DNA of 64,000 nt from an uncultured Gemmatimonadales bacterium (GTDB taxonomy: Bacteria > Gemmatimonadota > Gemmatimonadetes > Gemmatimonadales > GWC2-71-9). The translations under genes and the position numbers were made by a program. Of this stretch, positions 18,923 through 57,981 are shown one piece after another. The notes beneath the pieces are model-generated. The model was not told where the DNA came from, searched no databases, and saw nothing but the letters and a program-made list of their open reading frames with translations. Each line of letters opens with the position of its first letter. Within the stretch, counting starts at the first letter, position 1. The stretch lies in NCBI GenBank assembly GCA_963779755.1, contig CAVZZO010000003.1:1408001-1472000 (forward strand). The letters are read 5' to 3'.

Positions 18923-19964
18923 TAAGCTCCGCCTGGATGAACTGCAGCACCGTCACCTCTTCCCGCCGGAGGGCGGCGCTGGGATGCTGCGCCCGCTTGC
19001 CCTTCCGGGGCGGCGGGATGGTGCGGCCGGCAAAATAGGCCTCGAGGACGGCAGGATGGACGTAGTACTTCCGGCAGACGGCACGGGTGTTCCGCAGCCG
19101 GTGGGCCACCCGGTCGAGGGCCAGGTTGATGTTCCGCCGGGCCTGCCGCTCCGACTCGGCGGGCCCCAGCTCCCGTAACGCGCCGGCGGCCAGCATGGTG
19201 CCGCTCCAGGTGCGGAAATCCTTGGCCGTTACCTCGCGGCCGGTGATGTGGCGCAGGTACTCGTTCACATCGTCCGAGCCGATCGCCTGCCGCTTGCCGT
19301 CTTCATCCACATACTTGAAGAGCTGCTGGCCGGGGAGATCCTGGAGCTGCTGGACGATCCGCGCCAGCCGCCGGTCGGTGAGCGCCACCGAGTGCTGGAT
19401 GCCGCTCTTGCCCTTGAATTCGAACCGGATGCTGTGCCCCTTCACCTCCACGTGGTGGCGGCGCAGCGTGGTGAGGCCGTAGCTCTTGTTGGCCTTGGTG
19501 TATTCGTCGTTGCCCACCCGGATGAGCGTGCGGTCCAGCAGGCGTACGACCGTGGCGAGGAGCTTGCGGCGCGGGAGCCCGGGCAGGGCGAGGTCGCGCT
19601 CGACCTTCTCCCGTAGCCGGGGCAGCGCCTGGCTGAAGGTGAGCATGCGGCCGAACTTGGACTGGTCGCGCAGGTCGCGGAAGCGGGGGTGGTAGCGGTA
19701 CTGCTTGCGGCCCTTGGCGTCGCGGGCGGTGGCCTGAATGTGGCCGTCGGGGTCGGGACAGATCCACACGTCGGTCCAGGCCGGCGGGATGGCGAGCGAG
19801 GCGAGCCGGTTGCGCTCCGCGGCGCCGGTGATGCGGGTGCCGTCGGGCGCGTAGTAGGCGAAGCCGGTGCCTACTCTCCTGCGGGCAATGCCGCGCTCGC
19901 CGTCGGTGACATAATGAATCCCGGCGGCGGTGAGGTCCTGGAATTGAGCCTGCGGCTTCGCCAT
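18900..19964 (-). CDS. Bacterial (poxvirus-like) DNA topoisomerase IB
   Basis: AIPPAWTDVWI, GRKQYRYH, IRVGN, YGLTTL, FKGKSG, TAKDFRTW, LRNTRAVCRKYYVHP (catalytic R-K-R-N-Y). Confidence 0.95.
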   Translation of the reverse strand: MAKPQAQFQDLTAAGIHYVTDGERGIARRRVGTGFAYYAPDGTRITGAAERNRLASLAIPPAWTDVWICPDPDGHIQATARDAKGRKQYRYHPRFRDLRDQSKFGRMLTFSQALPRLREKVERDLALPGLPRRKLLATVVRLLDRTLIRVGNDEYTKANKSYGLTTLRRHHVEVKGHSIRFEFKGKSGIQHSVALTDRRLARIVQQLQDLPGQQLFKYVDEDGKRQAIGSDDVNEYLRHITGREVTAKDFRTWSGTMLAAGALRELGPAESERQARRNINLALDRVAHRLRNTRAVCRKYYVHPAVLEAYFAGRTIPPPRKGKRAQHPSAALRREEVTVLQFIQAELIPVPPSR

Positions 19965-25288: not shown

Positions 25289-25777
25289 CCTCACCCCGTG
25301 CCCCTCTCCACTGCTCTACCTAACCCCCTGTCCCCCTTCCCTGTTGGGAAGGGGGAACGGGGACATTGAGCATCGCGCGCTGTCACCCTGAGCGATAGCG
25401 AAGGGGCCGAAGCCGATCGAATGATTCCGGGGCGACCTAACCCCCGTCCCCCTTCCCTGGCGGGAAGGGGGAACGGGGACGTTGAGCATCGCGCGCTGTC
25501 ACCCTGAGCGATAGCGAAGGGGCCGAAGCCGATCGAAGGATTCCGGCCGACCTAACCCCCTGTCCCCCTTCCCTGCCGGGAAGGGGGAACGGTCCCTTGA
25601 GATCCGCTGTCATTGCGAGCCCGCGCCAGTGGGCGAAGCACCTAACCCCCTGTCCCCCTTCCCTGGCGGGAAGGGGGAACGGGACATTGAGCATCGCGCG
25701 CTGTCACCCTGAGCGATAGCGAAGCCGCCGAAGCTGGTCGAATGGTGTATCGGCCCCTTCGCTGCGCTCAGCGTGAT
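25289..25777 (+). repeat. Composite array (partial A', 4 x A, B, C, B doublet)
   Basis: A copies near 25319, 25436, 25551 and 25641. Confidence 0.95.
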
Positions 25778-25907
25778 ACAGTTTCGGAGAGATCTGAAGC
25801 ACCCACCTGCAGTGTTTCGCGTTTTTCTGATACCAGATCCGGCGATGGGCGGCCACAGATTGGGCCATGCTCCGCTCTTGCGCCCCGCTCGCCGAGGCAA
25901 CAATCAT

Positions 25908-26456
25908 ATGGGCATGGCATCGCCGGCATACTATACCGCAGAGATGGTCAGGGCACTGCCTGAGGACGGTAACAAATACGAAGTCGTCCACGGGGAGTTG
26001 CTGGTGACTCCGTCGCCCCGGCCCTGGCACGAAATCGTACAGGGCAGACTGTTTCTTGCGCTCGGGAATTATCTCGACCGTGAGCCCGTCGGGGTTCTGC
26101 TCGGCCCCAAAGGCGATATCTCCTGGGGGCCGGATATCCTGGTGCAGCCCGACCTTTATGTGGTCCGGTCCGACGAAGCGCGCTCATTGGACTGGAAACG
26201 GATGAAGACACTGCTGCTCGTGGCGGAGGTCCTCAGTCCTTCGACTTCCCGCTACGACCGCTTCACCAAGCGCCGGCTGTTTCAGGAGGTGGGAGTCCCA
26301 CTCTACTGGATCGTCGATCCCGATCAACGTCAGGTGGAGATCTGGACCCCCGAAGCGACCTTCCCGGTGATCGAGCGCGAGCGGCTTCGCTGGATGCCGG
26401 AGGGAGCCGAGATGCCGTGCGAGGTGGAGCTGGGGTGGGTGTTTCGGGAGGTGTGA
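25908..26456 (+). CDS. Uma2-family (DUF820) restriction-endonuclease-like protein, copy 1
   Basis: YEVVHGELLVTPSP, VQPDL, LVAEVLSPST, DRFTKRRLF, GVPLYWIVDP. Confidence 0.93.
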   Translation: MGMASPAYYTAEMVRALPEDGNKYEVVHGELLVTPSPRPWHEIVQGRLFLALGNYLDREPVGVLLGPKGDISWGPDILVQPDLYVVRSDEARSLDWKRMKTLLLVAEVLSPSTSRYDRFTKRRLFQEVGVPLYWIVDPDQRQVEIWTPEATFPVIERERLRWMPEGAEMPCEVELGWVFREV

Positions 26457-38797: not shown

Positions 38798-39860
38798 ATC
38801 ATTGCGAGGCGCCGCAGCGGGCGAGGCAATCTACCCGAGGTGCGCACGCTGTCACCCTGAGGCCGCGCAGCGGCCGAAGGGACCGAAGCCAATCGCATGA
38901 TTCCGGCCGACCTAACCCCCTGTCCCCCTTCCCTGCCGGGAAGGGGGAACCGGGACCGTGAGATCCGGCCTGCTCGCGCCTGCCGTCTTGCCTGACCTAA
39001 CCCCCTGTCCCCCTTCCCTGCCGGGAAGGGGGAACCGGGACCGTGAGATCCGGCCTGCTCGCGCCTGCCGTCTTGCCTGACCTAACCCCCTGTCCCCCTT
39101 CCCTGTCGGGAAGGGGGAACCGGGACCGTGAGATCCGGCCTGCTCGCGCCTGCCGTCTTGCCTGACCTAACCCCCTGTCCCCCTTCCCTGTCGGGAAGGG
39201 GGAACGGTTTCTTGAGATCCGCTGTCATCGCGAGGCGGCGCAGCCGCCGAGGCAATCTCCCGAGGTGCGCACGCTGTCACCCTGAGGCCGCGCAGCGGCC
39301 GAAGGGACCGAAGCCAATCGCATGATTCCGGCCGACCTAACCCCCTGTCCCCCTTCCCTGTCGGGAAGGGGGAACGGTTTCTTGAGATCCGCTGTCATCG
39401 CGAGGCGGCGCAGCCGCCGAGGCAATCTCCCGAGGTGCGCACGCTGTCACCCTGAGGCCGCGCAGCGGCCGAAGGGACCGAAGCCAATCGCATGATTCCG
39501 GCCGACCTAACCCCCTGTCCCCCTTCCCTGCCGGGAAGGGGGAACCGGGACCGTGAGATCCGGCCTGCTCGCGAGGCGGCGCAGCCGCCGAGGCAATCTC
39601 CCGAGGTGCGCACGCTGTCACCCTGAGGCCGCGCAGCGGCCGAAGGGGCCGAAGCCGATCGCATGATTCCGGCTGACCTAACCCCTGTCCCCCTTCCCTG
39701 ATGGGAAGGGGGAATGGTCCCTTGAGATCCGCTGTCATTGCGAGGCGGCGCCAGCGGCCGAAGCAATCCCCATGCTACCGGCTGGGAGTTACGCCACCGC
39801 TCACTGCTCACCGTCCTCCCTTTCCCCTGTCCCCGCTCCACTTGGTGGAGAAGGGGAAGG
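38798..39860 (+). repeat. Composite array with 85-bp and 170-bp periods (7 x A, B, C, A')
   Basis: A at 38911, 38996, 39081, 39166, 39336, 39506 and 39677. Confidence 0.96.
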
Positions 39861-39961
39861 ACGATTCGTCGCGCGTTTTTTTGATACCAAATTGGACAGC
39901 GGGCGGCCGCAGATTGGGCCATGGTCCACCCTTGCGCGCCTTTCGCCGAGGCATCAATCAT

Positions 39962-40510
39962 ATGGGCATGGCTTCACCGGCATATTACAGCGCGGAAATG
40001 GTCCGGGCACTGCCCGAGGACGGCAACAAGTACGAGGTCGTCCACGGGGAGTTGCTGGTGACCCCGTCGCCGCGACCACTCCACGAGCTGGTCCAGAACC
40101 GACTGCTGCTGGTGCTGGGCACCTACCTCGAGCGGGAGGACGTCGGCGTCCTCCTCGGCCCCAAAGGTGACATCTCCTGGGGGCCGGACATTCTGGTCCA
40201 GCCCGATCTGTTCGTCGTCCCCAAGCCGGAGTTCCGCACGCTCACCTGGGAGGGGATGAAGACGCTGCTCCTCGCGGTCGAGGTCCTGAGCCCTTCCACC
40301 GCACGCTATGACCGGTTCACCAAGCGCAGGCTGTTTCAGGAAGTGGGTGTGCCCCTCTACTGGATCGTGGATCCGGACGGGGGCCAGGTGGAAATCTGGA
40401 CCCCGGAGGCAACGTTCCCCGTGATCGAGCGGGAACGGCTGCGCTGGATGCCGGAGGGGGCAGAGATGCCGTGCGAGGTGGAGCTGGGATGGGTGTTTCG
40501 GGCGGTGTGA
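39962..40510 (+). CDS. Uma2-family protein, copy 2
   Basis: 182 aa; 24 substitutions against copy 1 by manual comparison. Confidence 0.93.
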   Translation: MGMASPAYYSAEMVRALPEDGNKYEVVHGELLVTPSPRPLHELVQNRLLLVLGTYLEREDVGVLLGPKGDISWGPDILVQPDLFVVPKPEFRTLTWEGMKTLLLAVEVLSPSTARYDRFTKRRLFQEVGVPLYWIVDPDGGQVEIWTPEATFPVIERERLRWMPEGAEMPCEVELGWVFRAV

Positions 40511-44290: not shown

Positions 44291-46266
44291 TCAGTCAAGC
44301 ACCGGTATGCCGAGTCCTGCGAGGTAGCAGAATGTGCTGTCATAGAACGAAGGTGCGCGCGTTGTATCGGCGGAGTCGCCATTCGGTACGCAGACAACCA
44401 TCCCCTGTCGTGCACGGGTCAGGAGAACCCGGTACGCGTTACGGAGGTACTGCTGGCGCTCAGGCTTGTTCACCCGATTCCACTTGCTCCCGCGAAATGT
44501 GTAGTAGTTCCAAGCCCCGCCCGCATACCTGAGATCTGCATCCCAGGTAACACAGGTCCAGTCCAGCTCAAGCCCCTGGACCTGGAACTCTGTTGCAGCA
44601 TCCTCCAAATAATAGGGACGAGCGCGTATCCTCGGGGCCATTCAAGAACCAGTGGATCGGATTGACCTCGACGCGAACATCTATCGCAAGAGGCTTCAGT
44701 CTCTGAGCATCGGACGACACAACTAGGCCGTAACGCTCCGATCCCCGCCCGTGCTCTCTAAGCCAGCGCCTGGCTAGGCCAAGATCTCGGGTAAGTGCTA
44801 TCGGATAGCGTCCTGCCATAGATGAGAGTATTTCCTGCGCTCCCACCTCGTCCAGATCCAATACGGTCTTCACGAATCTCGAGACATTCTCACTGCGGAA
44901 TGAACGCACGGACACGGCGAGATGGAGCCTGGCGTCTCTGACTACGTGTGGCCGGCCTTCTAACGCGTCCAGTGCCTTGCCAGCTCCATATTCGCTGTCA
45001 CGGAGTTCGGGAGAGATATCAGACTTCCCAGTCCGGAAACCCGTCGCGTACGGCCTCCAGCCAGGCCCCGATCCCTGCTTCTCCGCGATTGATCTCCTGA
45101 CCACCGCCGACCAGGCAAATAACGACGGCCCAATCGGGCTGGCGATCCATGTAGGACAGTAGGAACTCTGGCTCCGATTGACAAATTCGGGATGGCCCTT
45201 CTTTCGTTTCATGAAGTCGGCGGTCATCTTCCGATTCCAGGCGCGCTGGGCCTCATCGAAGATGACGACGTGATCTGCTGGAGGGCCGGCATTGTTCAGG
45301 CCTTCATCTCGAAAATGATGGACGTTCTGGATGAAGGACTTTACCTCTTGACCAGCCTGCCCCTTCCGCACCTTGAGTCCTTGGGCCTCGCGGCGCTTGA
45401 TCGCGTCTCTGGTCAGGGCCTCTCTCAAGACCTTTACCAACGGTCCATTCCCAGAGAGGTATACGGCATGCGTTGGCTCAGCCGGATCCTGCTTCCGAGT
45501 CGCGAATTCAGGCCAACTAATGTCTTGCCAGCTCCGGGCACTCCGGTCAACAAGACGATGGATTTCCTTCGCAGCTTCTGAGCGTGGGCAATCACCTGTT
45601 CTATGGTCCGCGTAGTCTCCTGCAGATCAAGGGGACCCGCCTCCGTCCGGGAGATTGCCTCGACGGACTGACCGGCAAAGAGGGCCTGGGCCGCCTCAAC
45701 GATTGTCGGTGTCGGGAAATATGGCGAGTCGGCCCATTCAATCGGATCCAATGGAAGACCACGCTGGTTCGCCAACCCGGCAAGAATGAGTTGCCGGAGA
45801 CCGACCGCATTGGCGCGGAGCGGTGGATACACCCAATCGTTGTATGGCTTGGAAAGATGGGGATCGGACTCTGGGGCCTCGGTGGCGATCAGAATGGGAA
45901 TGACACGGGCGCTGTGGCTCGCGAGGTGGAAGTTCTTGAGATCAAGAGCATAGTCCCACGCCTGCTCCAGGTCCGCCCGGAGAAAGCGGGTTTGAGCTAC
46001 CTTGAATTCGAGAACAAAGACCACATCCGCCGAGATGACGACGGCGTCAATGCGACTGCCCGATTCGAGGAACCACAAATTCGAGGTGAATCGCACCGTC
46101 GATTCCCCTGGAGCGCCGCCTTGAGGATCGGGATCTGCTGGCCCCATGCCCCCATCTGGGCCTGCTCGATATCGCCTTCGGACCTCTTGCCCAATATCCC
46201 AAGAATTGCGTCCGCATCGGCGGCGAGGAAGCCTTGAATAGACGCCGTGTAATAGGCCCGAGGCAT
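44291..46266 (-). pseudogene. DUF2075 (Schlafen group 3-like) nuclease-helicase, frameshifted
   Basis: [82 protein letters not shown] across several frames. Confidence 0.85.
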
Positions 46267-46316
46267 GCTGATGCTAGACTCCCTCACTGCTGGGCGATTC
46301 GGATGACCTGACCCGA

Positions 46317-48636
46317 TCATAAGGCCAGTTCCCGGAACCGGCAGAATGCGTTGGCCAGGCGCATCTGATCGGGCGTCCTGCAATCCGGCGCGAAGATTCT
46401 AGTGCCCGCCACTATCAGAGCAATACAACGTGCCCGTGACGTAGCGACGTTCAGCCGATTTCCACTATAGAGGAACCCCATGCCCCGAGGTGCATCCTCC
46501 GCGCTCGAGGTTGCTATGGAGTAGATGACGATTGGGGCTTCCTGGCCCTGGAACTTATCTACTGTCCCAACTCGTGCCCCGCCCGGAAGTGCATCAAGAA
46601 GAGCACTAACCTGCGCATTGTAAGGTGCGACGATGAGTACGTCTTCCAGCCCCAGCGGCTTCCGTCTACCGTCCTGGTCGGTCCAGGCAGAGCCGCCTGA
46701 CAACAGCTGCGCCATCATGGCTCTGATCAGATCGACCTCTTCGGGACATTCGTCTGGCCGGCCGGCATGCTCAGCCGGTACGAGCCTGAGACCGGTCTTG
46801 TCCAAGGGAAGCTGGCCGAAGACGCACTGCGCTTCAAGGCCGTCCCGCGACCGCAGTCTGCCCTGGTAGAAGACCTCAGAGGTGAAGCGGCAAACGTCCG
46901 GATGCAATCTCCACGTCTCGTTCAAGAACAGCCCACGATCAGGCGGCATCGTGCCCTGCCCCTGCAGCAGGTGCTCCAAAGCCGACATATCCGTTCCAGG
47001 AGGATGGATGCCCTGCTGCGGTTGCTCGAGCTGCCTCGGATCTCCCAACAGGATGAGATTGCGGGCGGCCGGTGCAACTGCCAGAGCATTCGCCAAAGAG
47101 AACTGGCCGGCCTCATCGACGAATAGGAGGTCGACTGAGCCTTGCATCTCCGGACGGCTCCAGAGCCAAGCGGTTCCCGCCGCCAGAGTCACCTTGCCTT
47201 CCTGGAGCGCGTCAGGCACGTCATCGTTGTTGCGGGCTACTACGATCTCCTTCGCGGCACACCTCTGTTCATCGCGTGCCTTCTGTATACCCCGAACTTC
47301 GACGCCTCTTGCCCTGGCGAGTGAACACACCTTCTCAAGCAGGTTGCCAATCACCTTGTGGCTGGTGGCGGTGATACCCACCCTCTTCCCTTCACCGAGT
47401 GCTTTCAGGATCATCAGAGCCCCGGTATGAGTCTTACCGGTTCCGGGGGGACCCTGGATAGGCAGGATGGTATCTCCGAGGGAGGACACCAGCCGTTCCG
47501 CAGCCGCCCCAGCTATCTCCCCATCCGCAGCGAGCCGTTTCCCTTCCGTGAGCCCCGCGACTCGAGGTCTCTTGGCCGTTAACATATCGAGCGCTGCGTT
47601 GTACGGTGCCTGACGCATCATTCCATTGGTAGCCACGAACTCCCCGAATGCTCAGCGAACTCCGCCGAAGCACACCGTCAGAGATGTACTCGTAAGGAAT
47701 GAGAGCCTCCGGATGCGGCACCTGACTATTCTTACCTCGCTGAAGGTCAATCGTTCGTTCCATGTCATCCACCCCCACGATCACCCCGGGGCTCGCGCCG
47801 GTAGTGGGGTCTGTGCGCACCATCGCCGGGATGGAATGAGTGGTCCTGCGGCGGGAATCGGTATCGGTGTATCGTTGACTTGCGTACATGCCCCACTTCT
47901 CCCAGGTATTGCAGGCCGCCCAGTGTCCCACTGTCTTCGGTCAGCTCGTCCAGCGTCATCTCGCACCAGTTGAAGTATCGCCACCACATGGCCTTCGCCT
48001 CGCGCCGATGAAACTCGAGTAGCTGGGCCAGTAGCCACTTCGCCCGTTGTTCCGGAGTCCACGTCCCGGGGTCTCACGGGAAGATCAAGGGTCAGCCGGT
48101 CTCGTACCTGCTGCACTTGCTCTAGTCGTTGCGCCTGGTCTTGATCTGGCTCGACGGAAGCGGGGGAGGCGCGTGGGATATCTTCCCCAGTCCTGATTCT
48201 TCAGCTGATCCCGAAGGGTCTCCAGCCAGTCTCGTAGCCGCTTGGCTGGAGAGGCAGTCATCCCGGTTATAGCCCTCGATCTCCTGGAGGAGCTCCCCGC
48301 CGTTCACGCTGTTGCCGCCAAGTTCAAGCCAGGCCTCGAAGCTGGCCAATGCGGCGCGATGCGCTAGAGATTGACCGCCCTCGTGAAGCCGTAGAACGCC
48401 TCCATTCTCTTCTTGATCGAATAGCTCTCCACCGAAGCCCGAAGACCCTGGTGTACGACGAGGTCCACAAACACCTTACCCCTCAGCAGCCGGTCGAGCT
48501 CTTCAATGCGGGTGTCATAGCGGCCGGCCAGTCGCTTGAGAGCAGTTTGTTCATAGGCGGCATAGTGATACACGTGGAGATCGGGATACTGTTCCAGACG
48601 GGCGGTTAGCAGATCCATGAACCATTCGAACACCTC
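46317..48636 (-). pseudogene. TM0106-family RecB-like nuclease/RNase H-like/SF1 helicase, 5'-truncated and frameshifted
   Basis: HVYHYAAYEQTALKRL, VESYSIK, YNRDDC, IQGPPGTGKT, FVDEAGQ, LLGDPRQL, GTVDKFQGQE, NRLNVATSRA. Confidence 0.85.
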
Positions 48637-51600
48637 CGATCGCGCGTGCAGGAGTCGCTTGCCTCCAGCTACACCCTGGAGCGGGAGCTGGGCGGCGGCG
48701 GCATGTCGCGCGTCTTCGTGGCCCAGGAACACCGGCTCGGCCGCAAGGTGGTGGTGAAGCTGCTGGCGCCCGAGCTGGCCGCGGCGCTCTCGGCCACCCG
48801 GTTCGAGCGGGAGATCCAGGTGGCCGCCTCGCTGCAACAGGCCAACATCGTCCCGGTGCTGGCGGCGGGCGAGGTGGACGGCCTTCCTTATTACACCATG
48901 CCGTTCGTGGAGGGCGAGAGTCTCCGCGCCCGGCTGGGCCGCGGCCCCCTCACCATCGCCGAGGTGGTGAGCATCCTGCGCGATGTCTCCCGCGCCCTGG
49001 CCTACGCCCACGAGCACGGCGTGGTCCACCGGGACATCAAGCCGGACAACGTCCTCCTCTCCGGCCACACGGCGGTGGTGACCGACTTCGGCATCGCCAA
49101 GGCGATCGCGGCCGCCGCCCAGGGCCCGGCCGGCGCCACGCTCACCCAGCTGGGCACCGCCGTGGGGACGCCCATGTACATGGCGCCGGAACAGGCGGCG
49201 GGCGATCCGGCGACGGACCACCGCGCCGACATCTACGCCTTCGGCTGCATGGCCTACGAGCTGATCACCGGGCAGGCACCCTTCGCCGGCCTGACGCCCC
49301 ACCGGCTGCTCGTGGCCCATATGAGCGAGAGCCCGAAGCCGGTGGCCGACCTGCGCCCCGACTGCCCGCCCGCCCTGGCGTCGCTGGTGATGCAGTGCGT
49401 CGCCAAGGAACCGGGTTCGCGCCCGGCCGGCGCCACCGAGCTGCTGCAGCGGCTCGACGCGGTCACCTCGCCGTCGGGTTCAGGGGCGGCCGTGCCGGCC
49501 ATCCTCATGGGCGGCCGGAACATGCTCTGGCGCGCGCTGGCCATCTACGCCGGCGCGTTCGTGGCGGTGGCCATCGTGGCCCGGGCCGCGATCATCGCCA
49601 TCGGCCTCCCCGACTGGGTCTTCCCCGGCGCGCTGGTGGTCATGGCGCTGGGCCTCCCGGTGGTGCTCTTCACCGCCTACACCCAGTACGTCGCCCGCCG
49701 GGCGGCCGCCGCCACGCCCACCTTCACCCCCGGCGGCTCCCGCTCGCTCACGGCCGGCGAGGGGACGATGGCCACGCTGGCGATCAAGGCGATGCCGCAC
49801 GTCTCCTGGAAGCGCACCGCCCGCGGCGGGATCATCGCGGTAGGCGCGTTCATTCTGCTCATCACGGGCTGGATGGTGACGCGCGCGCTGGGCATCGGGC
49901 CGGCGGCCTCGCTGCTCTCGTCCGGCAAGCTCTCCGCCAGCGACAGGGTGGTGGTGGCGGCATTCGATGCGCCGGGCGCCGACTCGTCGCTGGGCAGCAC
50001 CATCGCCGAGGCGGTGAAGACCAACCTGTCGCAGAGCAGCGCCGTGCACGTGATGCCCACCAGCGCGGTCGTGGCCACGCTGGAGCAGATGCAGCGGCCC
50101 GACACGGCGCGGGTGGACTATGCCACCGCGCGGGAGATCGCCCAGCGATCGGGTGCCAAGGCGGTGGTGACGGGGAGCATCGTGCCGGCGGGGAGCGGGT
50201 ACATCATCACCGCCAAGCTGGTGGAGGCGACCTCGGGCAACGATCTGGCGTCCTACACCGAGTCGGCGAAGGATGCGGGCGATCTCATCGCGGCGGTGGA
50301 CCGGGTGACCAAGTCGCTGCGCGGCAAGATCGGCGAGTCGCTCAAGTCGGTGCACGACGCGCCCCGGCTCGACCAGGTGACCACCGCGTCGCTCGGCGCG
50401 CTCAAGAGCTACACCGCCGGGCTCTTCGCCAACGACGTGCAGGGCGACTACCCGGCCGCCATCCAGCACTTCCGCGACGCCATCCGGCAGGACAGCACCT
50501 TCGCCATGGCCTGGGTGCAGCTCGTCCTACTCGCTGGCGTCGAAGGGCGGCACCGGTTCGAGCGCGGCAGCGGACGCGGCGCTGACCCAGGGTTTCCAGC
50601 TGCGCGACCGGCTGCCGGAGCGGGAGCGGGCCAATGTCGAGGGGGCGTACTACTGGCTGGTGGCGAACGACCGGAAGAAGGCGATTCCGGCGCTGCGGCG
50701 CGCGGTGGAGCTCGACTCCACCAATGTGGACGCGGTCAACAACCTCGCCATCGCCCTCTCCAATACGCGCGACTATGCCGGCGCCGAGCGGATGTACCGG
50801 CTGGCGATCGCGGGCGATCCGGGGAACGGCACGCTGATCACCAACCTGGCGACCCTGTACACCATGATGGGGCGGCATGCTTCGTTCGATTCGGTGATGG
50901 CGGCGGATGGAGCGCGACAGCATCCCCTTCCCCACCGCGCCCGCCCGTTTCACCGAGCTGCTGGCCGCGCCATCAGTACGACTCGGCCGAGGCGCTCGCC
51001 CGCGCCGGGGCCGACACGGCCAGGCCGGCGAACCGGCCGCGCGCCCAGGAAGCCGTGATCCAGTTGGCGGTGCTGCACGGCCGGCTGCGCGAGGCGGAAC
51101 GGATGTACCCCGCCTGGCTGGACGCGACGGCTCGTCTCCGCGGCGATTCGGTCAGCCCGTACCAGATCGCCTACTGGCATGCCATGGTGGACGGCGCCCT
51201 GCGGGGCAACACCGCGAGAGCCACCGCCATGCTCGACTCGACGCTGCGCGCCCATCCGGTGGCCTCGGAGCCGCTGGAGCGGGACCAGAGCCAGTACCTG
51301 GCCCTGGCCTATGCCCTCATGGGCGATGCGGCCAAGGCGCGAACGGTGATGAGCCAGCACGTGGCCCGGCTCGATTCGCTGGGCCAGACGCAGCAGTATC
51401 TCTGGCGGGTCTGGCTGCAGGGCGCCACCGCCCTGGCGGAAGGAAAGACCGACAGCGCCATCGTCTATTACCGCCAGAGCGACTTCGACGCCGACGGCCT
51501 GCCGATGAACAGACGGCACCGTGTGGCCCCCCCTCACGCTGGGCCAGGCATTCGATCGCGCGGGCAAGCCCGACTCGGCGCGGAAGTACCTCACCCAGTA

Positions 51601-51823
51601 TGCCGAGATGGCGGGGACCGGTCATTATAATGCGGACCCCTACAACATGGCGCCCACGCTCTTCCGGCTGGGCCAGCTGTACCAGGACGCGGGCGACACC
51701 GCACACGCGATGGAGTACTACGGCCGGTTCGTGGATCTGTGGAAGAACGCCGACCCCGACCTCCAGCCGCGGGTGACCGAGGCGAAGAAGGCGATGGCGG
51801 AGCTGGCGCCGGATCGGCGATAG
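48634..51823 (+). pseudogene. Ser/Thr kinase with TM, TolB-N-like and TPR domains; native start apparently clipped, 3' half frameshifted
   Basis: LRSRVQESL..YTLERELGGGGMSRVF, HRDIKPDN, DFG; TPR tail continues in frames 50660-, 50907- and 51521-51823 (FVDLWKNADPDLQPRV). Confidence 0.85.
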
Positions 51824-51840
51824 CCTCACCCCCTCCCTCT

Positions 51841-52359
51841 CTACCTCACCCCTGTCCCCTCTCCACTTGGTGGAGAGGGGGACCGAACCTCAGGATCCCA
51901 ACCAGCGCTTCGCGGGACACTTTTTCATTTGCCAGCCGGACAACCCGGTAACCGCGCCGAATGAGCCATTCGGTCCGTGCATGGTCTTTCGCGGTTTGTG
52001 CAGGATCCAGATGTATCGGCCCGTCAATCTCCATGATGAACCGCAACTCGGCACAATAGAAGTCGACAACGAAGGGACCAACGGGGTACTGGCGGCGAAA
52101 CCTGAGTCCAAACAGCTGCCGGTTGCGGACGAGCTGCCAGACCTTGTGCTCGGCAGGCGTAAGATGCTTCCGAAGCCCTCGAGCGATCTGCTTCCTCGCA
52201 ACCATGCGGCGGCGGATGGGGCGATGCATACGGACACGATAGATATAGACCGGCCTGCACGTCACACCATACGAACGCAAACAGAGCCGATGAAACGCGG
52301 GAATCCCGAGTGCCGCGTCCCCCTCTCCACGAAGTGGAGAGGGGACAGGGGTGAGGTAG
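51841..52359. mobile_element. 519-bp unit: DUF559 gene between 43-bp inverted A' repeats (putative nuclease-repeat element)
   Basis: 51841-51883 is the reverse complement of 52317-52359 at 42/43 positions, with the mismatch in the loop. Confidence 0.7.
51846..52229 (-). CDS. DUF559 (Vsr-like) endonuclease-domain protein, copy 1
   Basis: ARGLRKHLTPAEHKVW, FRRQYPVGPFVVDFYC, IMEIDGPIH, DHARTEWL..GYRVVR. Confidence 0.92.
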   Translation of the reverse strand: MHRPIRRRMVARKQIARGLRKHLTPAEHKVWQLVRNRQLFGLRFRRQYPVGPFVVDFYCAELRFIMEIDGPIHLDPAQTAKDHARTEWLIRRGYRVVRLANEKVSREALVGILRFGPPLHQVERGQG

Positions 52360-52435
52360 CAGCGGAGAGCGGACAATGGTAAGGCAGCGACAGAGGTGAG
52401 GGAGGACGCACTGGAGAGGGGGCCAAGGGGTGAGC

Positions 52436-52849
52436 CTACGGCACCATCCGGAACCGCTCTACATGTCTCGCCCGCACCACCCCGAAATGCCGCCGGTCCG
52501 TCGTGAGCACGCTGGTGATATCCAGGCGCTCGGCCATGGCCACGAGTGACGCATCCACGAAACCGAGCGGCAGGGACTGGTAGATGGAAACGAGATCGGC
52601 AACGCGGGGGAGATCCTCCTCCTCCTGCGGCTCGATCCGGAACTCGCCATCGGCCAGCGCGCGGACGAAGGCCTGCTCCGCCGCGGGGCCGATCCGGGTC
52701 TGGAGGAGATAGCAGATTTCGGGAAGGACAGGGGCCGGCACCAGGATGTCCTCTTTGCCGCGCTCCCACCAGCTCCGCACCCGGTTGTGCCAGGCATCGC
52801 TCCGGTCAATGAGCGCGTACAGGGGCCCGGTGTCGGCCAGGACGGTCAG
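52436..52849 (-). CDS. vapC: VapC PIN-domain toxin, probable CTG start
   Basis: (L)TVLADTGPLYAL, VLPEICYLL, LGFVDASLVA, LTTDRRHF; CTGA overlap with the antitoxin stop. Confidence 0.85.
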   Translation of the reverse strand: MTVLADTGPLYALIDRSDAWHNRVRSWWERGKEDILVPAPVLPEICYLLQTRIGPAAEQAFVRALADGEFRIEPQEEEDLPRVADLVSIYQSLPLGFVDASLVAMAERLDITSVLTTDRRHFGVVRARHVERFRMVP

Positions 52850-53082
52850 GCGTGCGGCTCCTGCCAGAGCAGGTCTTCCTGCCGCTCAGCCGTGTCCCCG
52901 CACCCGCTGGCGAACTGCCCGGCGATCGTGGGTACCCTCCGCCCGGACTCACCGCTCCCCCGCCCCAGATAGAACGCGACAGCCTCGCGCAGTACCGCCG
53001 CGAAGCTTTTCCCTTCGCGCCGAGCCGCCTGGCGCAGGCCCTTGAGGAGAGCTTCGTCGAGAAAGACGGTGGTGCGCTTCAT
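52846..53082 (-). CDS. vapB: CopG/ribbon-helix-helix antitoxin (VapB-like)
   Basis: MKRTTVFLDEALLKGLRQAARREGKSFAAVLREAV. Confidence 0.88.
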   Translation of the reverse strand: MKRTTVFLDEALLKGLRQAARREGKSFAAVLREAVAFYLGRGSGESGRRVPTIAGQFASGCGDTAERQEDLLWQEPHA

Positions 53083-53083
53083 C

Positions 53084-53117
53084 GCATATATATGCTATTA
53101 TGGTGACATACAGTCAA
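53084..53117 (-). promoter_or_regulatory. vapBC promoter (TTGACT-17-CATATA) with the palindrome GCATATATATGC; leaderless
   Basis: Minus strand TTGACTgtatgtcaccataatagCATATAtatgcgATG. Confidence 0.7.
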
Positions 53118-53145
53118 TGCCCGGGCGGCAAGGCGGGCCGAAGGT

Positions 53146-53350
53146 CGCTGCTTCGGTCGCTCCGCGCCCTCGCAATGACAGCCAGGGATGGCGCCACGAC
53201 GATCGAGACTCAAGTCCCGGTTCCCCCTTCCCAACAGGGAAGGGGGACAGGGGGTTAGGTCAGAAGGGGGGCAGGGGGTTAGGTCGAGAAAGCCAGAAGG
53301 GCCCGGAGCCCGGTCACGGCTTCGGCCCCTTCGCTGCGCTCAGGGTGACA
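53146..53350 (-). repeat. C, A (plus half-unit) and B modules in the minus orientation
   Basis: CTCGCAATGAC; TTCCCCCTTCCCAACAGGGAAGGGGGACAGGGGGTTAGG; CCCCTTCGCTGCGCTCAGGGTGACA. Confidence 0.9.
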
Positions 53351-53385
53351 GCATTGCCCCGCCGCGCCCATTCTGCCCACTCACC

Positions 53386-53485
53386 TGCCGTCCTGCGACC
53401 GAGCGGCCTTCAATAAGAGCCGCGAGGAAGTCCTTTAGGGCCGTCCTGCCGTCCTGCCGTCGTGCCGCCCTGCCGCCCTGCCGTC
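53386..53485 (-). repeat. Inverted copy of the 70-bp unit plus octamers, overlapping the nagB 3' end
   Basis: GCGAGGAAGTCCTTTAGGGCCG at 53422-53443. Confidence 0.85.
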
Positions 53486-55321
53486 TTCCACCACGAACGC
53501 CTCCATCGCGAAGTACTCCGCCAACCCCAGCCGGTCCAGGTCCGCCGCGGTGCCCTGGTTGCGCGCCTCCACCCGCTGCCAGAACTCCCGCTCGTCCGGC
53601 CCCGGGAAGGGCGCGGTGTCCTTCTGCGACTGGTGCTTGAAGATGGCCTGGATCTTGAGCCGCAGCTCCTCCTGGCTCATGGGCACCAGCCAGGTGGCCT
53701 CCGTCACCGGCCACTCCTGCCACGCGCCGCGATAGAGCCAGACCTCCGGCGCCGGGTGGCCCGCCTCCACATACTCCGCCAGCGCCGAGTCCACCGCCTG
53801 CCTGCACATGCGGTGGGTGCCGTGAGGGTCGGACAGATCGCCCGCCACGAAGATCATCTCCGGCCGCAGCTCCTCCAGCAGTTCGCGCACCCGGCGCACA
53901 TCACCCGGGCCGATGGGATCCTTGCGTACCCGGCCGGTCTGGTAGAACGGCAGGTTGAGGAACCGGGCGGACTCCTCGCTCAGGCCCAGCGTGCGGATGC
54001 CGGCCACGGCCTCGGATTCGCGGATCACCCGCTTGATCTCCTGCACCTCGGGGATATCCACGTCGCCCGGCTGTTTCCGCGCCAGCGCGGCCTCCACCTT
54101 GTCGGCCAGCTCGCTCGACGCCTCGGGCGCGATGTGCCGCTCGGCCGCCAGCCGCTGGAGGAAATCGAGGTGCCGGCGGACGTCGTGGTCGAACACCGCC
54201 AGGCTCCCGCTGGTGAGATACGCGACGGTGATGCGGTTTTCGTTCAGCACCAGCTTCCGGAGCGTGCCGCCCATGGAGATGACGTCGTCGTCCGGGTGAG
54301 GCGAGAAGCAGATCACTCGCTTCTCCCGGGGCAGTTTCGATTTCCCCCGGATCTTCGCCCCCAGCTGGTTGAACACCAGCCCGTTGAGCACGCCCGCCGC
54401 CCCGTACTGTGCCACCAGGCTGCTCAGCCGATGCTCGGCGTAGTGCCGCTGGGTGAGCTTGAGGATGGCGGTCTGGGTCTGGCGCGAGAGCCAGACCACC
54501 GCCCGGAGCGCCAGCTCGGGTGTCCATTCGACATAGCCCAGCAGCCAGGGTGTGGCGATGCGGGTGAGCGCGGCCGCCGCCGCGCCGTCGAGGTAGAACG
54601 TGGCGTGCGGATGTTCCTGGAGAAAGGTGGCCGCCACCTCGTGATCCACCTCGCCCTCGACCGCCCGGCGCACGATGTCGGCCTTGTGCTCGCCGGTCGC
54701 CAGCAGGACGATCTCCCGTGCCTCCAGAATGGTGCCCACGCCCATGGTGACCGCTTCACGCGGCACGTTCTCCTCGCCGAAGAAGTCGGCGGCGGCGTCC
54801 TTGCGGGTGACCAGGTCGAGCGTGATGAGCCGGGTACGGCTGTCGGCGCCGCTGCCGGGCTCGTTGAAGCCGATATGTCCGGTGCGTCCGATCCCCAGCA
54901 GCTGGAGGTCGATCCCGCCCGCGGCGCGGATCGCCTCCTCGTACCGCTCGCACTCGGCGGTCACCCGCGCGCGCGCGATGTCGCCCCGGGGGATGTGGAC
55001 GTTCTCCCGCCGGATATCGATGTGGGAGAAGAGGTTCTCCCACATGAACCGATGGTAGGAGTGGACGCTCTCCGGGTCCATCGGGTAGTACTCGTCCAGG
55101 TTGAAGGTGACCACGTCGGCGAAGCTGAAGCCGTCCTCCCGGTGCATGCGGATGAGTTCGCGGTAGACGCCGATGGGCGTGGAGCCGGTGGCGAGGCCGA
55201 GTACCGGGGCGGCGCCGGCGGCGCGCCGGTCCCGGATGACGTCGGCGATGCGCTGCGCGACGACGCGGGCAAGTTCCTCGTGGTCGTCGAAGATGAGGGC
55301 GGGGAGGCGTTCGGGCGGCAT
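53435..55321 (-). CDS. nagB: Glucosamine-6-phosphate deaminase fused to a PIG-L/LmbE-like domain
   Basis: LGLATGSTP, TFNLDEY, LLGIGRTGHIGFNEPGS; C-domain FSPHPDDDVISMGG, DPHGTH, KHQSQ. Confidence 0.95.
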   Translation of the reverse strand: MPPERLPALIFDDHEELARVVAQRIADVIRDRRAAGAAPVLGLATGSTPIGVYRELIRMHREDGFSFADVVTFNLDEYYPMDPESVHSYHRFMWENLFSHIDIRRENVHIPRGDIARARVTAECERYEEAIRAAGGIDLQLLGIGRTGHIGFNEPGSGADSRTRLITLDLVTRKDAAADFFGEENVPREAVTMGVGTILEAREIVLLATGEHKADIVRRAVEGEVDHEVAATFLQEHPHATFYLDGAAAAALTRIATPWLLGYVEWTPELALRAVVWLSRQTQTAILKLTQRHYAEHRLSSLVAQYGAAGVLNGLVFNQLGAKIRGKSKLPREKRVICFSPHPDDDVISMGGTLRKLVLNENRITVAYLTSGSLAVFDHDVRRHLDFLQRLAAERHIAPEASSELADKVEAALARKQPGDVDIPEVQEIKRVIRESEAVAGIRTLGLSEESARFLNLPFYQTGRVRKDPIGPGDVRRVRELLEELRPEMIFVAGDLSDPHGTHRMCRQAVDSALAEYVEAGHPAPEVWLYRGAWQEWPVTEATWLVPMSQEELRLKIQAIFKHQSQKDTAPFPGPDEREFWQRVEARNQGTAADLDRLGLAEYFAMEAFVVEDGRAAGRHDGRTAGRP

Positions 55322-55424
55322 GGAGGAAATGTAGGGGGAGTGGGCCGGGAAGGCGGCAGGGCGGCAGGGCGGCAGGGCGGCAGCCAAACATCGCTATCAT
55401 TGCGAGCCCGCGTAGAGCCGGTGA

Positions 55425-56060
55425 GACCTAACCCCCTGTCCCCCTTCCCGACTGGGAAGGGGAACTCGCGAGGACCTAACCCCCGTCCCCCTTCCCGACT
55501 GGGAAGGGGGAACTCGCGAGATAGGATCAGGTCGCGCTTCCGGGTACCGGCGTGCGATGATTTTGGTTTCCAGTATCAGGCAGGGCCAGGACATCTTCGG
55601 GCATGAGGAACGTCAATATCGTTCTCGGACGCCGGGTCAAGCCCGAAAAGCTCCAACAGGCAAAGCACCTTCGCGGGAGGATGACGCCCGCCGAGCGTAT
55701 GCTATGGCGTCAGCTTCGGAGAAACCAACTGGGGGTGCATTTCAGGCGTCAACAGATCATCCGGGGCTTCGTGGTCGATTTCTACTGCCATACGGCCCGG
55801 CTTATCGTCGAGGTCGACGGCGGCATTCACCAGACCCAGCTTGACTATGACCGCGCACGCGAAGATGCCCTCCGAGAGCTCGGCCTGAGAATACTCAGGG
55901 TCAGCAATGAAGATGTGCTGCGACACTGCGGAGCTACTCTGGCTCGGATCCGGAGGGTACTCAAGCTCCCGGTCCCCCCTTCCCGACAGGGAAGGGGGAC
56001 AGGGGGTTAGGTCAGGGGGGACAGGGGGTTAGGTCAAAGGGGGAACAGGGGGCTAGATCA
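55425..56060. mobile_element. DUF559 gene enclosed by inward-facing A repeats (2 left; 1 plus half-units right)
   Basis: A(+) at 55425-55465 and 55473-55513; A(-) at 55972-56013; half-units at 56015-56059. Confidence 0.65.
55603..56010 (+). CDS. DUF559 (Vsr-like) endonuclease-domain protein, copy 2
   Basis: AKHLRGRMTPAERMLW, FRRQQIIRGFVVDFYC, LIVEVDGGIH, DRAREDAL..GLRILRVSNEDV. Confidence 0.93.
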   Translation: MRNVNIVLGRRVKPEKLQQAKHLRGRMTPAERMLWRQLRRNQLGVHFRRQQIIRGFVVDFYCHTARLIVEVDGGIHQTQLDYDRAREDALRELGLRILRVSNEDVLRHCGATLARIRRVLKLPVPPSRQGRGTGG

Positions 56061-56088
56061 GCCTGAAGACGGAGGACACGGGATCAGG

Positions 56089-57382
56089 TCACCGGTACCG
56101 CTCTCCGCCCTTCCACACCGCCTCGACGTTGCGCAGAGTCGAGATGTCCTTCGTCGGATCCCCCTTCACCGCCACCAGGTCCGCCAGCAACCCCACCGCG
56201 ATGCGGCCACGGTCGTTCAGGTGGAAAATCGCGGCGTTGCCGCTGGTGGCGGCCTTCGCCGCGGCGAGCGGGGTCATGCCGTGCGCTACCATCAGCTCGG
56301 CTTCCCGCACGTTGGTGCCGTGGGTGAAGACACCGACATCGCCGCCGAAACAGATGGTGACGCCGGCATCCAGCGCCGCCCTTGAACGAGGCCCATTTGG
56401 CCTTGAGGCCTGCGGGCTCCGGCGTCCTGCCCGGCAGGTAGCCGGCGAAGTACTCGGCATAGGCCTCGCTCGCGGCCAGGGTGGGGCAGAGCGCCACGCC
56501 CTTGTTCTTCATCAGCTGAAAGACCTCGGGTGTTCCTTCGCCGCCGTGCTCGATGGTGGTGACGCTGGCCAGGATGGCCCGCTTCATGCCTTCCGGGGTG
56601 TTGGCGTGCGCCGCCACCGGCCGGCCGGCGTCGGTGGCCGTTGCCACCAGGGCGTTCAGTTCCTCCTGGGTGAAGGTGGGGCGCGACTCGCCGCGCGGCC
56701 CCCAGCCATAGTCGGCATAGACCTTGACCCAGTCGGCGCCGTGGCCGATCTGGCTCCGGGTGACACGGGTGATCTCCTCGACGCCCGAGGCCTCTTCCCC
56801 GCCCTGCGGCGGGTCGAACGAGTAGTTGGTGCGCCGGGGGCCGTAGCTGCCGGTGGCCACGATGGCACGGGTAACCGCCAGGATCCTCGGGCCGGGGACG
56901 ACCCCGTCATTGATGGCGTGCTTGAGCTGGACGTCGTAATCGAAGACGCCCTCGGTCCCCAGGTCGCGGGTGGTGGTGATGCCGGCCATGAGGGTGGCGC
57001 GGGCGTGCGCCACGGCCTCGGCCATGCGGTAGCCGGCCTTCTCCTTCAGGACCTGGTCGTCCCAGAGCGTTTCATTGTAGGGATGGAGAAAGAGATGGCT
57101 GTGGCCCTCGATCATGCCGGGAATGAGCGTGGTGCCGGGGAGGCTGATGCGTTCGGTACCGGCCGGCGCCTTGAAGCCGGCGGCCGGCCCGACAGCTTCG
57201 ATGCGGTTCCCGTGGACCAGAACCACCCAGCCTTTCTGCGGGCCGTCGGCTACCCCGTCCCACACCGCATCGGGAACCAGCAGGGTGCGTTTTACGGAGT
57301 CGGCGGCAGGCTGCTGCGCGTGGGCAACGGGCGCGGCCAGGATCAGCGCGCCAAGGATTGCCAGGTGGCTGGGACGAAGCAT
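56089..57382 (-). CDS. Secreted metal-dependent amidohydrolase with one frameshift near 56380
   Basis: Signal peptide; PGMIEGHSH, GITTTRDLG, GADWVK, VAAHA, TIEHG; continues in the other frame with GGDVG...GRIAVGLLADLV. Confidence 0.85.
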
Positions 57383-57407: not shown

Positions 57408-57958
57408 CCGCAGATTACGCAGATTACGCAGAAACGGCAACGACGCGAGGTTGATCAGTCCGCTCCCACGCAGGTGCTATTTTTTGTCAGCACAAAGCGG
57501 TAGTATCCCAGGCTCGGCGTTCCGAAATTGAGCAGGAGAGCGCGGGTCAAACGGCTGGCTTTGAGATAGTTGATAACCTGGGCTCTCTCAATGTCAGTGA
57601 CGGTGGGAAGGGCCTTGATCTCGACGACCAGGTGCTCATAGCAGACAAAGTCGGCGCGGTAGCCGGTTTTCAGGAATTGCCCATTGAAGCGGATTGGGAA
57701 CAGTACCTCCGACGCAAAAGGGATCCCGGCCGCGCTCAATGCCAGAGCCAGCGCCTCGTGGTACACAGCCTCCAGAAAACCCGCTCCCAGTTGTCGATGC
57801 ACCTGCAGAGCTGCCCCAATAACGGCATACGTTTCGCTGTCGCGCCTGGTGCGTAAGATGCTCATTAGTAAGTAGTGAAACCAACTGCCGCTACGGCGCA
57901 TCATCATTTCAGCGCACGGCAGGGCATTTTCAATCTGCGTAATCTGCGTAATCTGCGG
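57408..57958. mobile_element. 551-bp unit: GxxExxY gene between perfect 25-bp inverted repeats
   Basis: CCGCAGATTACGCAGATTACGCAGA (57408-57432) and TCTGCGTAATCTGCGTAATCTGCGG (57934-57958). Confidence 0.7.
57455..57865 (-). CDS. GxxExxY protein (PD-(D/E)XK superfamily)
   Basis: VIGAALQVHRQLGAGFLEAVY, YRADF, VVEIKA, AQVINYLK, ALLLNFG. Confidence 0.93.
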   Translation of the reverse strand: MSILRTRRDSETYAVIGAALQVHRQLGAGFLEAVYHEALALALSAAGIPFASEVLFPIRFNGQFLKTGYRADFVCYEHLVVEIKALPTVTDIERAQVINYLKASRLTRALLLNFGTPSLGYYRFVLTKNSTCVGAD

Positions 57959-57981
57959 CTCCACCCATCGGACTCCTGAAA

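Follow-up and report, generated by a model that had tools for sequence, protein, structure and literature searches.

A Vsr-like DUF559 gene between inverted BoxC/PIT/TM-type repeats in a Gemmatimonadales genome, and recurrence of the gene-repeat pairing in other bacteria

Introduction

Repeats of the BoxC/PIT/TM class have been known in Escherichia coli since 1992 and occur in hundreds of copies in Enterobacter, Microcystis, and other bacteria; in vitro they adopt a triplex structure, and the loci that they mark are unstable. Neither an enzyme nor an origin or mode of spread is assigned to these repeats. The DUF559 protein family comprises over 23,000 representative clusters, and its role has been described no further than as "Vsr-like". 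Here we describe a DUF559 gene at 55.6 kb of a 64,000-nucleotide stretch from an uncultured Gemmatimonadales bacterium (contig CAVZZO010000003.1 of assembly GCA_963779755.1, positions 1,408,001 to 1,472,000 of the forward strand; the whole stretch is hereafter called the window), which is enclosed by inverted copies of a repeat, designated A, that belongs to this class. A second DUF559 gene of the window, at 51.8 kb, is enclosed by a related variant, designated A'.

BoxC and PIT elements are reportedly the subject of papers by Bergler in 1992 and by Hoyne and Maher in 2000. According to passages of Holder 2015 (PMC4666352), the triplex motif (TM) is present in 23 copies in E. coli MG1655 and in thousands of copies across proteobacteria and cyanobacteria, being found in Enterobacteria, cyanobacteria, and Neisseria, and two types, A (TTA) and B (CCG), are distinguished. 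The same passages describe TM loci as always intergenic, rearrangement-prone, and linked to genomic instability, and give no known function for TMs.

A close parallel in organization is the system of repetitive extragenic palindromes (REP, or REPIN) and REP-associated tyrosine transposases (RAYTs), in which a nuclease gene lies between inverted copies of the dispersed palindromic repeat of its own genome. This organization is found in the window, as are distinct gene-repeat pairs within one genome and solo copies far outnumbering the gene; the inheritance of RAYTs, in part vertical at a single locus, has its DUF559 parallel in the acnB synteny described below. The two systems differ in the enzyme, which is an HUH/Y1 transposase in REP-RAYT and a Vsr-like PD-(D/E)XK hydrolase of about 120 amino acids here, in the third, mirror block that the window repeat possesses unlike REP, and in the many DUF559 copies of some genomes, for example seven within 8.4 kb.

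Results and discussion

Organization of the 55.6-kb cassette and its sister

The 55.6-kb locus is a compact cassette of about 610–640 bp, in which the nuclease gene lies between inverted copies of a three-block repeat (Table 1). In each left unit (period 48, 2.0 copies) the hairpin CCCCCTTCCC-GACT-GGGAAGGGG(G) comes after a C-rich leader, GACCTAACCCCC(T)GT. In the right copy the block ACAGGGGGTTAGGTC follows the hairpin and ends at 56,013, and this copy is identical at 39/39 positions to a solo unit at 39,164. The arms 55,425–55,462 and 55,976–56,013 (38 nt) are 89% complementary, the arms 55,425–55,444 and 56,016–56,035 (20 nt) are 100% complementary, and the leaders point outward. The end of the open reading frame (ORF) is encoded by the right repeat, which supplies the tail PPSRQGRGTGG and the TAG stop codon (56,008–56,010), the last seven codons being repeat sequence. 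As single-stranded DNA the hairpins have computed folding energies of -10.9 to -15 kcal/mol, with z values of -2.2 to -3.8. Since the module preceding the left units also precedes A units in the arrays, the left context is that of an ordinary A array. A consensus scan of 55,300–56,200 found neither a sigma-70-like promoter nor a terminator, and an Rfam search over 51,000–57,000 gave nothing near the gathering score.

The same layout is found in the sister cassette. Its A' arms of 43 nt are 98% complementary, the TGA stop codon of the enclosed gene, paralogue 2, lies inside GGTGAGG, and paralogue 2 matches DUF559 in Pfam with an E-value of 5.2e-31. Both cassettes of the window have inverted, homotypic ends, A for the 55.6-kb gene (paralogue 1) and A' for paralogue 2. 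The core CCCTTCCC-N3-6-GGGAAGGG occurs 47 times in the window and not once in 100 shuffles, and the leader, with at most one mismatch, 53 times against a shuffle mean of 0.74. A total of 47 A and six A' hairpins were counted, the latter at 22,247, 30,279, 30,727, 30,924, 51,856, and 52,320; with A' making up 6/53 of the window repeats, the chance of drawing two A' flanks independently is about 0.01 by our own arithmetic. The initial annotation had described a second, divergent DUF559 gene enclosed by repeat A with outward leaders, an ORF end inside the distal repeat, a layout matching the 51.8-kb unit, and A as the most abundant variant of the window, and on all these points it is borne out.

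Table 1. Positions of the 55.6-kb DUF559 cassette, its repeats, and related elements in the window
Feature	Position	Strand	Remarks
Sister cassette	51841..52359	-	A' repeat 51841-51883; paralogue 2 51846-52205/52250; A' repeat 52317-52359
Solo A repeat (hairpin + two leader copies)	53222..53285	-	no nuclease gene; 71 nt, 93% identity to cassette right end
Array module GCTATCATTGCGAG...	55392..55412	+	21 nt, 90-95% identity to array units u90, u207; precedes A units in 25-40 kb arrays too
Left repeat A, unit 1	55425..55472	+	leader (third-strand block) 55425-55439; hairpin 55441-55462, stem 9, loop GACT
Left repeat A, unit 2, tandem copy	55473..55520	+	hairpin 55486-55511, stem 11
Spacer, last left repeat to ATG	55521..55602	+	82 nt; no consensus promoter, no GGAGG
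DUF559 (Vsr-like PD-(D/E)XK) gene	55603..56010	+	135 aa; Pfam, 3HRL match, AlphaFold2 model/Foldseek
Right repeat A, inverted	55975..56013	-	hairpin 55975-55998, loop ACA; G-rich third block GGGGGTTAGG(TC)
Two more tandem 22-nt leader copies	56016..56061	-	weaker third copy 56071-56092; period 22, 3.0 copies

The encoded protein

By sequence and predicted fold, the 55.6-kb ORF, which is intact, is a Vsr-like PD-(D/E)XK endonuclease gene. Its Pfam match to DUF559 (PF04480) extends over residues 17–120 with an E-value of 7.2e-32 and a score of 109.9 bits, the gathering cut-off being 20.6, and DUF559 and MTES_1575 are the only Pfam domains of the protein. The start codon is supported by an alignment in which the N-terminus MRNVNIVLGRRV lines up with the MPxKNIIxGQRV of homologues. 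An alignment of 34 sequences shows no substitution at E70, D72, H76, D83, or R86, and at least 90% of the sequences retain D59. The protein sequence matches 3HRL (Neisseria gonorrhoeae NGO0050) with an E-value of 3.4e-20, and Foldseek with the AlphaFold2 model (predicted local distance difference test score 84.2) retrieved 3HRL with a TM-score of 0.87, I-Bth0305I (3R3P) with TM-scores of 0.66–0.73, and Vsr (1VSR) with an E-value of 0.024. The fold and the conserved acidic and His columns are common to Vsr, 3HRL, I-Bth0305I, and the window protein. Vsr has a cytosine methyltransferase partner, whereas none is evident beside the DUF559 genes of the window, and homing endonucleases of the 3R3P type are associated with an intron, an intein, or one conserved target, whereas DUF559 genes lie in diverse intergenic spacers. 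In passages of a report, VsrA of Caulobacter, a DUF559 protein, is described as damaging DNA in vivo (PMC12907096).

The two DUF559 proteins of the window, the second read from 51,846–52,250 on the minus strand, are 43% identical (44/102), and the closest relatives of both are merely 58–59% identical to them. The GC content at third codon positions (GC3) is 0.69 in the 55.6-kb gene and 0.67–0.69 across both DUF559 genes, as compared with 0.79–0.93 in the neighbouring host genes. The COX1 encoded in the window has 85% identity to proteins that carry the name Gemmatimonadales. The 55.6-kb ORF is missing from the collection of predicted proteins, in which paralogue 2 is included as the 119-residue P0121.

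Relationship of the repeats to BoxC/PIT/TM

The window repeat is composed of three blocks, namely, a pyrimidine arm, a purine arm, and a mirror purine "leader". Under the purine-motif triad rule (G on G, A or T on A), hand counting gave 9/10 triads for A (GGGAAGGGGG-ACA-GGGGGTTAGG) and nine consecutive triads for A' (GTGGAGAGGGG-ACA-GGGGTGAGG), and upon exchange of the leaders the counts fell to 7/10 for A and 6/11 for A'. Over 193 C/T-arm hairpins from the window and all loci described below, the triad fit was on average 0.85 on the leader side (129 hairpins at 0.8 or higher), 0.43 on the opposite side (two at 0.8 or higher), and 0.69 with cross-paired leaders. A (TTAGG/GGGAAGGG) and A' (GTGAGG/GGAGAGG) differ as they do because the leader mirrors the purine arm. 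The contrast of CCTAACC/CTTCCC with CCTCACC/CTCTCC, to which the initial annotation had drawn attention, is real, but it is first of all an internal covariation between stem and leader and not in itself evidence of enzyme specificity.

Three blocks, that is, a C-rich arm, a G-rich arm, and, with a 3-nt loop, a second G-rich block mirroring the first, are also the constituents of BoxC/PIT/TM. Like those elements, the window repeats are G/C-rich, present in multiple copies, single or in inverted pairs, and almost always intergenic, the copy at 30,279 being the exception, and the TTA of TM type A is placed as in the GGTTAGG of the window. The window differs in the extreme density of its repeats, about one per 1.2 kb, and in tandem arrays of up to 12 units. 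The stems of the window, CCCCCTTCCC and CCCCTCTCCAC, do not match the published E. coli pattern (TMECO), CCCTCNCCC-N3-6-GGGNGAGGG-N3-GGGNGAGGG; because of this mismatch A and A' represent further variants of the class, and their folding into an intrastrand triplex is predicted from sequence.

Recurrence of the DUF559-repeat pairing in other genomes

A single scan of species genomes with an alignment of 12 sequences as the query matched at least 613 stretches before confirmation, and the best 80 of at least 558 confirmed stretches gave 79 loci, mostly in Chloroflexota and Cyanobacteria, with others in Binatota, Bipolaricaulota, a Bacillota metagenome-assembled genome (MAG), and "delta proteobacterium" MAGs. 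In these loci, 113 C/T-arm G/C hairpins with a stem of at least 8 were located in the 98.5 kb lying within 300 nt of DUF559, as against 22 in the other 573.7 kb, an approximately 30-fold difference in density, and one or more proximal hairpins were present at 59 of the 79 loci. Inverted repeats with a score of at least 16 flanked 17 of 80 copies but only one of 242 shifted controls, after four copies near contig ends had been dropped. The leader GACCTAACCCC and the stem CCCCTTCCC of the window reappear in Nostocales, Anaerolineales, Binataceae, and "delta" MAGs. The pairing of DUF559 with the repeat is real and general, and recurs over at least six phyla, E. coli ycjD included.

The repeats are located 20–150 nt upstream of DUF559 and at its stop codon. 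Across phyla, many ORFs end at the TAA of ACC-TAA-CC or run on through the repeat sequence in one or another of its three frames, and in an unbiased, index-free search of the 149 closest representative clusters, tripeptides encoded by the repeat were present among the last 25 residues in 38 and among the first 25 in 21. The few repeats distant from DUF559 in the other genomes resemble those flanking the DUF559 of their own locus, sharing a fraction of 0.51 of 8-mers as compared with 0.11 for other loci (n = 18). Hairpin doublets are located upstream in Anaerolineales and on both sides in Nostocales, and Chloroflexota loci contain several DUF559 copies.

Cassettes with long inverted ends were recognized on plasmids. 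A tblastn search of plasmids with paralogue 2 gave 38 records, 12 of which were used for analysis of the flanks (L080–L083 and L085–L092). Plasmids of Deinococcus and Sphingomonas carry repeat-DUF559-repeat cassettes of about 500 bp in operon spacers, with inverted ends of 56 nt (98%) between paaD and paaZ of D. psychrotolerans, 56 nt (95%) in the hpa operon of D. proteolyticus, and 35 nt (86%) in D. aetherius. The hpa cassettes occupy three different spacers in three Deinococcus species, with leaders outward as in the window, and the Sphingomonas cassette occupies the spacer between pntAA and pntAB. Both ends of a cassette share one variant, which differs between sister Deinococcus elements (CCTCCCCC, CCCTCTCCC, or TCCCCCC). 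The paaD-paaZ spacer of Deinococcus sp. QL22 is an empty site, its coding flanks being 77% identical and its spacers too diverged to fix the junctions. No target-site duplication was recognizable at four well-bounded cassettes. A homing endonuclease gene with one fixed target was considered and rejected, as the sites are paa, hpa (three spacers), pnt, downstream of acnB, and fabI-sapF.

Several features of individual loci were noted. In the Sphingomonas plasmid (L081, 2860–2885), the right arm (GGGGAGGAATAAGATG) provides GGAGG 7 nt upstream of the pntAB start, and the cassette insertion may have taken over the pntAB ribosome-binding site. In three Deinococcus plasmids (L087, L090, L092), a conserved TTTAGGCTG follows the left repeat 10–15 nt upstream of the DUF559 start; a TANNNT motif so near the start would fit the geometry of leaderless promoters, and the 55.6-kb gene of the window, which the initial annotation had called leaderless, has no such motif at that distance. 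In an Anaerolineales MAG (L029, contig JACZJC010000062.1, 600–8264), seven DUF559 copies or fragments lie on one strand within 8.4 kb, interleaved with small genes of toxin-antitoxin type, and several are truncated by another repeat encoding ..GLRTCAEPVEALS.... An Rfam search found no rRNA upstream of the cyanobacterial copies, and one tRNA only, in L074; the conserved block upstream of these copies is acnB.

Repeat type and DUF559 clade

A tree was constructed from the domain part of 96 DUF559 copies. A split supported at 98% by the Shimodaira-Hasegawa-like approximate likelihood ratio test separates 83 copies, including paralogue 1, from 13, consisting of paralogue 2 and the 12 plasmid copies. 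The CCCTTCCC stem is found with 55/83 copies on the side of paralogue 1 and 0/13 on the other, and the leader CCTA[AT]CCC with 52/83 and 1/13, respectively. The number of state changes on the tree is 18, as compared with a mean of 31.4 and a minimum of 25 in 300 shuffles. Protein tails give a similar picture, with seven A-only and four GEG/ERG codes among 120 listed relatives of paralogue 1, and five and 24, respectively, among 76 relatives of paralogue 2. Repeat type is non-random with respect to DUF559 clade.

The initial annotation had proposed this comparison of phylogeny with repeat type, on the view that two nuclease paralogues with distinct but related repeats represent co-evolving enzyme-site pairs. 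The general pairing and the tracking of clade by repeat type agree with that view, while the assignment of one variant to each enzyme does not hold up so well. In Nostocales and Anaerolineales, doublets that combine two stem types flank single DUF559 genes, which recalls the A+B pairs of E. coli; many single genes have two stem types, and therefore one enzyme per variant is not the rule. Kinship and hitch-hiking also confound the comparison (see below).

DUF559 and TM repeats in E. coli

The stop codon of ycjD (b1289) of E. coli K-12 lies in a decayed hairpin, the ORF ending in ..RRSPSP*, and TMECO no. 9 (1 351 239–1 351 204 in Table 1 of Holder) is located 168 nt downstream of ycjD, next to fabI. 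Like the window protein, YcjD is a DUF559 protein encoded by a variable gene with its ORF end inside a hairpin of the repeat type. It differs in that it is about 39% identical to paralogue 2 of the window, that the repeat is on the 3' side only, and that the 5' side carries an unrelated perfect palindrome of 19 nt. The place between ycjD and fabI is where BoxC was first seen (Bergler 1992, as cited in passages of PMC4666352). The words "ycjD" and "endonuclease" are absent from the main text of Holder 2015 (PMC4666352). A duplicated 3' fragment of ycjD is present between ycjD and TMECO no. 9 in K-12 (L095, 2300–2370), and in one ST131 genome TetR/RND genes adjoin fabI instead of ycjD-sapF, with neither a clean empty site nor cassette boundaries.

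A possible partnership of nuclease and repeat

These observations suggest that the DUF559 nuclease and the repeat are functional partners in a manner similar to REP-RAYT, a reading to which we assign a probability of roughly 0.5. In this model, the DUF559 protein would recognize the repeat, either folded into hairpin or triplex or as a duplex, and nick the DNA there, both in the copies that border its gene and in the solo ones. Repair or recombination by the host would then copy, convert, duplicate, or delete repeat units, so that the cassette ends would be kept as a matched pair while solo units and tandem arrays accumulate, as in the 47 A and six A' hairpins of the window. The instability reported for loci with such motifs would likewise be explained by nicking followed by repair, and A and A' would be two gene-plus-site lineages that travelled and diverged together. 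Both the tandem arrays of the window, leader-only or of whole units, and the instability of TM loci reported by Holder fit this nick-and-repair proposal. A wider claim, that DUF559 is the missing enzyme of BoxC/PIT/TM over many phyla, that it reads the folded structure, that gene and variant specificity co-diverged, and that repair causes the instability, is tentative, and taken as a whole we consider it somewhat doubtful.

Mobility of the cassettes is indicated by their presence in different operon spacers, one empty site, several loci at contig ends, clusters with degenerate fragments as in L029, and the patchy distribution of ycjD among 5426 complete E. coli genomes, 3378 with and 2048 without the gene. 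The cassettes resemble miniature inverted-repeat transposable elements and small insertion sequences in their inverted ends of 35–56 nt, in their size of about 500 bp, in being inserted between genes, and in having derivatives that lack the gene; unlike them, they have no DDE transposase and no identified target-site duplication, and the solo units are single ends in direct tandem. No transposase, integrase, tyrosine recombinase, or Y1 enzyme was found among 43 ORFs of the window scanned.

A number of points weigh against the partnership. It is proposed from an association of sequences, and a hydrolytic PD-(D/E)XK nuclease is incapable of strand transfer by itself. At the threshold used, 20 of the 79 loci have no proximal hairpin. 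The orientation of the leader varies between loci, being outward in the window, in Deinococcus, and in L049, L061, L050, and L015, and inward in L042, L048, L054, and L078. In the window, A repeats also adjoin ordinary genes and two genes for Uma2-family nucleases. The signal linking repeat type to clade is largely one deep split plus kinship, since kin share labels, and the pattern would be no different if gene and repeats travelled together as a cassette with no specificity at all. Of 60 E. coli genomes taken as a spread sample, 22 without ycjD had 2–6 TM-like places and 37 with it had 3–6 (the remaining row matched only 41 nt), a weak test because the Megablast counts near-identical type-A copies only. 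The neighbour acnB is common to 7/13 cyanobacterial copies across genera, which points to long vertical residence rather than hopping; patterns both of mobility and of residence are described for RAYTs in the parts of the literature consulted (Nunvar 2010; Bertels & Rainey 2011; Ton-Hoang 2012). Passages of Holder 2015 report that mobility genes were "never found... transposases or integrases" near TMs, and cite work of Maher in which PIT elements had no promoter or terminator activity in E. coli (PMC4666352).

The strongest competitor of the partnership is that the repeats act as a landing pad. The repeats would be fragile or recombinogenic, or preferred targets spread by other means, DUF559 would be a selfish homing-type mini-gene or frequent horizontal cargo that comes to lie in or next to them and cuts something else, and the inverted ends would simply be the two members of an inverted pair that was there before. 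Close inverted TM pairs without any gene do exist in E. coli, five of them in MG1655, and TM loci are prone to rearrangement, as stated in passages of Holder 2015 (PMC4666352); the fold is near that of the homing endonuclease 3R3P, DUF559 is found in junk-rich islands with toxin-antitoxin genes (the L029 cluster, and the PIN-RHH pair that Pfam places between the two cassettes of the window), and TMs persist in E. coli genomes without ycjD. Such a pad would hardly explain why hairpins are concentrated at DUF559 in genomes otherwise sparse in them, why the two ends of one cassette carry a common variant while related elements carry another, why, across phyla, ORFs are joined at their ends to the repeat in every one of the three frames, or why repeat type tracks clade. 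We consider the landing pad unlikely, both as to the fragile or preferred target and as to the origin of the ends.

Regulation in cis, by which the repeats would control the gene that they enclose through silencing, insulation, protection of the mRNA end, or autoregulatory sites, with the solo copies being independent, appears quite improbable. The lack of promoter or terminator activity of PIT in E. coli, taken from the Maher work cited above, speaks against it. It draws on the constant position of the repeats relative to the gene, their retention beside the syntenic cyanobacterial copies, and the GGAGG supplied to pntAB in Sphingomonas, but leaves unexplained why identical solo copies and arrays of 12 units occur so far from the gene, and why there are inverted ends of 56 nt. 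The consensus of the attC core of integrons is RYYYAAC / GTTRRRY, and attC sites are roughly 57–141 bp long. Movement of the small ORF and its hairpin as a cassette by an integron integrase was rejected and is very remote indeed: the leader ACCTAAC / GTTAGGT fits the core consensus, stop codons often lie in ACC-TAA-CC (30/120 relatives end in T), and L029 contains small co-oriented ORFs with toxin-antitoxin genes, but the 43 ORFs scanned include neither IntI nor a tyrosine recombinase, the cores on the two sides of the gene are separated by 580 bp, far beyond the length of attC, the solo units have no GTT partner, the cyanobacterial doublets end in GAGAGGTC and not GTT, and the arrays are separated by large, ordinary genes that lie on both strands.

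Returning to the partnership of nuclease and repeat, a search of titles, abstracts, and some passages of the literature found no published link between the DUF559 family and BoxC/PIT/TM repeats; the repeats as a class and DUF559 as a family have been described before, and their partnership appears to be new. The systematic physical link offers a candidate partner for both, and E. coli K-12, with a single ycjD and 23 TMECO sites, is suited for its study. If functional, the pair would be a second, mechanistically different case of a resident nuclease maintaining extragenic repeats, and of a nuclease reading an unusual DNA structure. If the pair is not functional, its cassettes are nevertheless widespread, with a size of about 500 bp and a position between operon genes, and gene callers mis-extend or miss them.

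Other repeats and neighbouring genes in the window

The solo A units are 39/39 to 45/47 identical to the right end of the 55.6-kb cassette. Their origin as remnants of the DUF559 coding end was considered and rejected, as the homology to the cassette stops 6–9 nt past the hairpin, which gives no evidence of deletion derivatives retaining ORF sequence. At 17,768–18,923, a leader-only tandem array (23 nt x 6.8) abuts 12.6 tandem units of 81 nt composed of leader, hairpin, and tail; other arrays of the window have periods of 85, 117, 170, and 207 nt, with A and A' mixed with a second module (GTCACCCTGAGCGATAGCGAAGGGGCC...). Between 17,768 and 40,782, the C-rich leader is on the plus strand for all A and A' copies, at ten intergenic sites and regardless of the strand of the neighbouring gene, and the only reversed copies of the window are those at 53.2 kb and 56.0 kb. 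The one-way orientation suggests a bias linked with replication or with some mechanism that acts on single strands. The intragenic exception, the A' copy at 30,279–30,305, lies in frame within a Ser/Thr kinase domain (ORF 27,885–30,566, minus strand; ..LLDSGSLTPVPPLHDVERGQGGEVLFYVMPYVEGESL...), where it encodes PPLH.VERGQG, the same peptide as in the tail of paralogue 2.

Two genes for putative endonucleases of the Uma2 family (PF05685), at 25,773–26,456 and 39,701–40,510, both on the plus strand, each directly follow an A-repeat array. After the second, direct (not inverted) A copies occur within about 120 nt, and after the first, the next A copies are about 1.2 kb downstream, at 27.7 kb. The region 44,291–47,636 (minus strand) has a low GC content (0.59–0.60) and contains split ORFs for a Schlafen-group-3-like helicase, and also a superfamily 1 helicase (AAA_11/AAA_12); it is possibly a defence island, one gene of which seems to be broken into two ORFs. 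Downstream of the 55.6-kb cassette, a PDDEXK_3 gene of the GxxExxY type (ORF 57,455–57,964, minus strand; Pfam E-value 8e-35, GC3 0.68) is bracketed by inverted tandem 9-mers, GCAGATTAC, at 57,410–57,433 and 57,932–57,960, and is a second kind of small PD-(D/E)XK gene with inverted repeats of its own.

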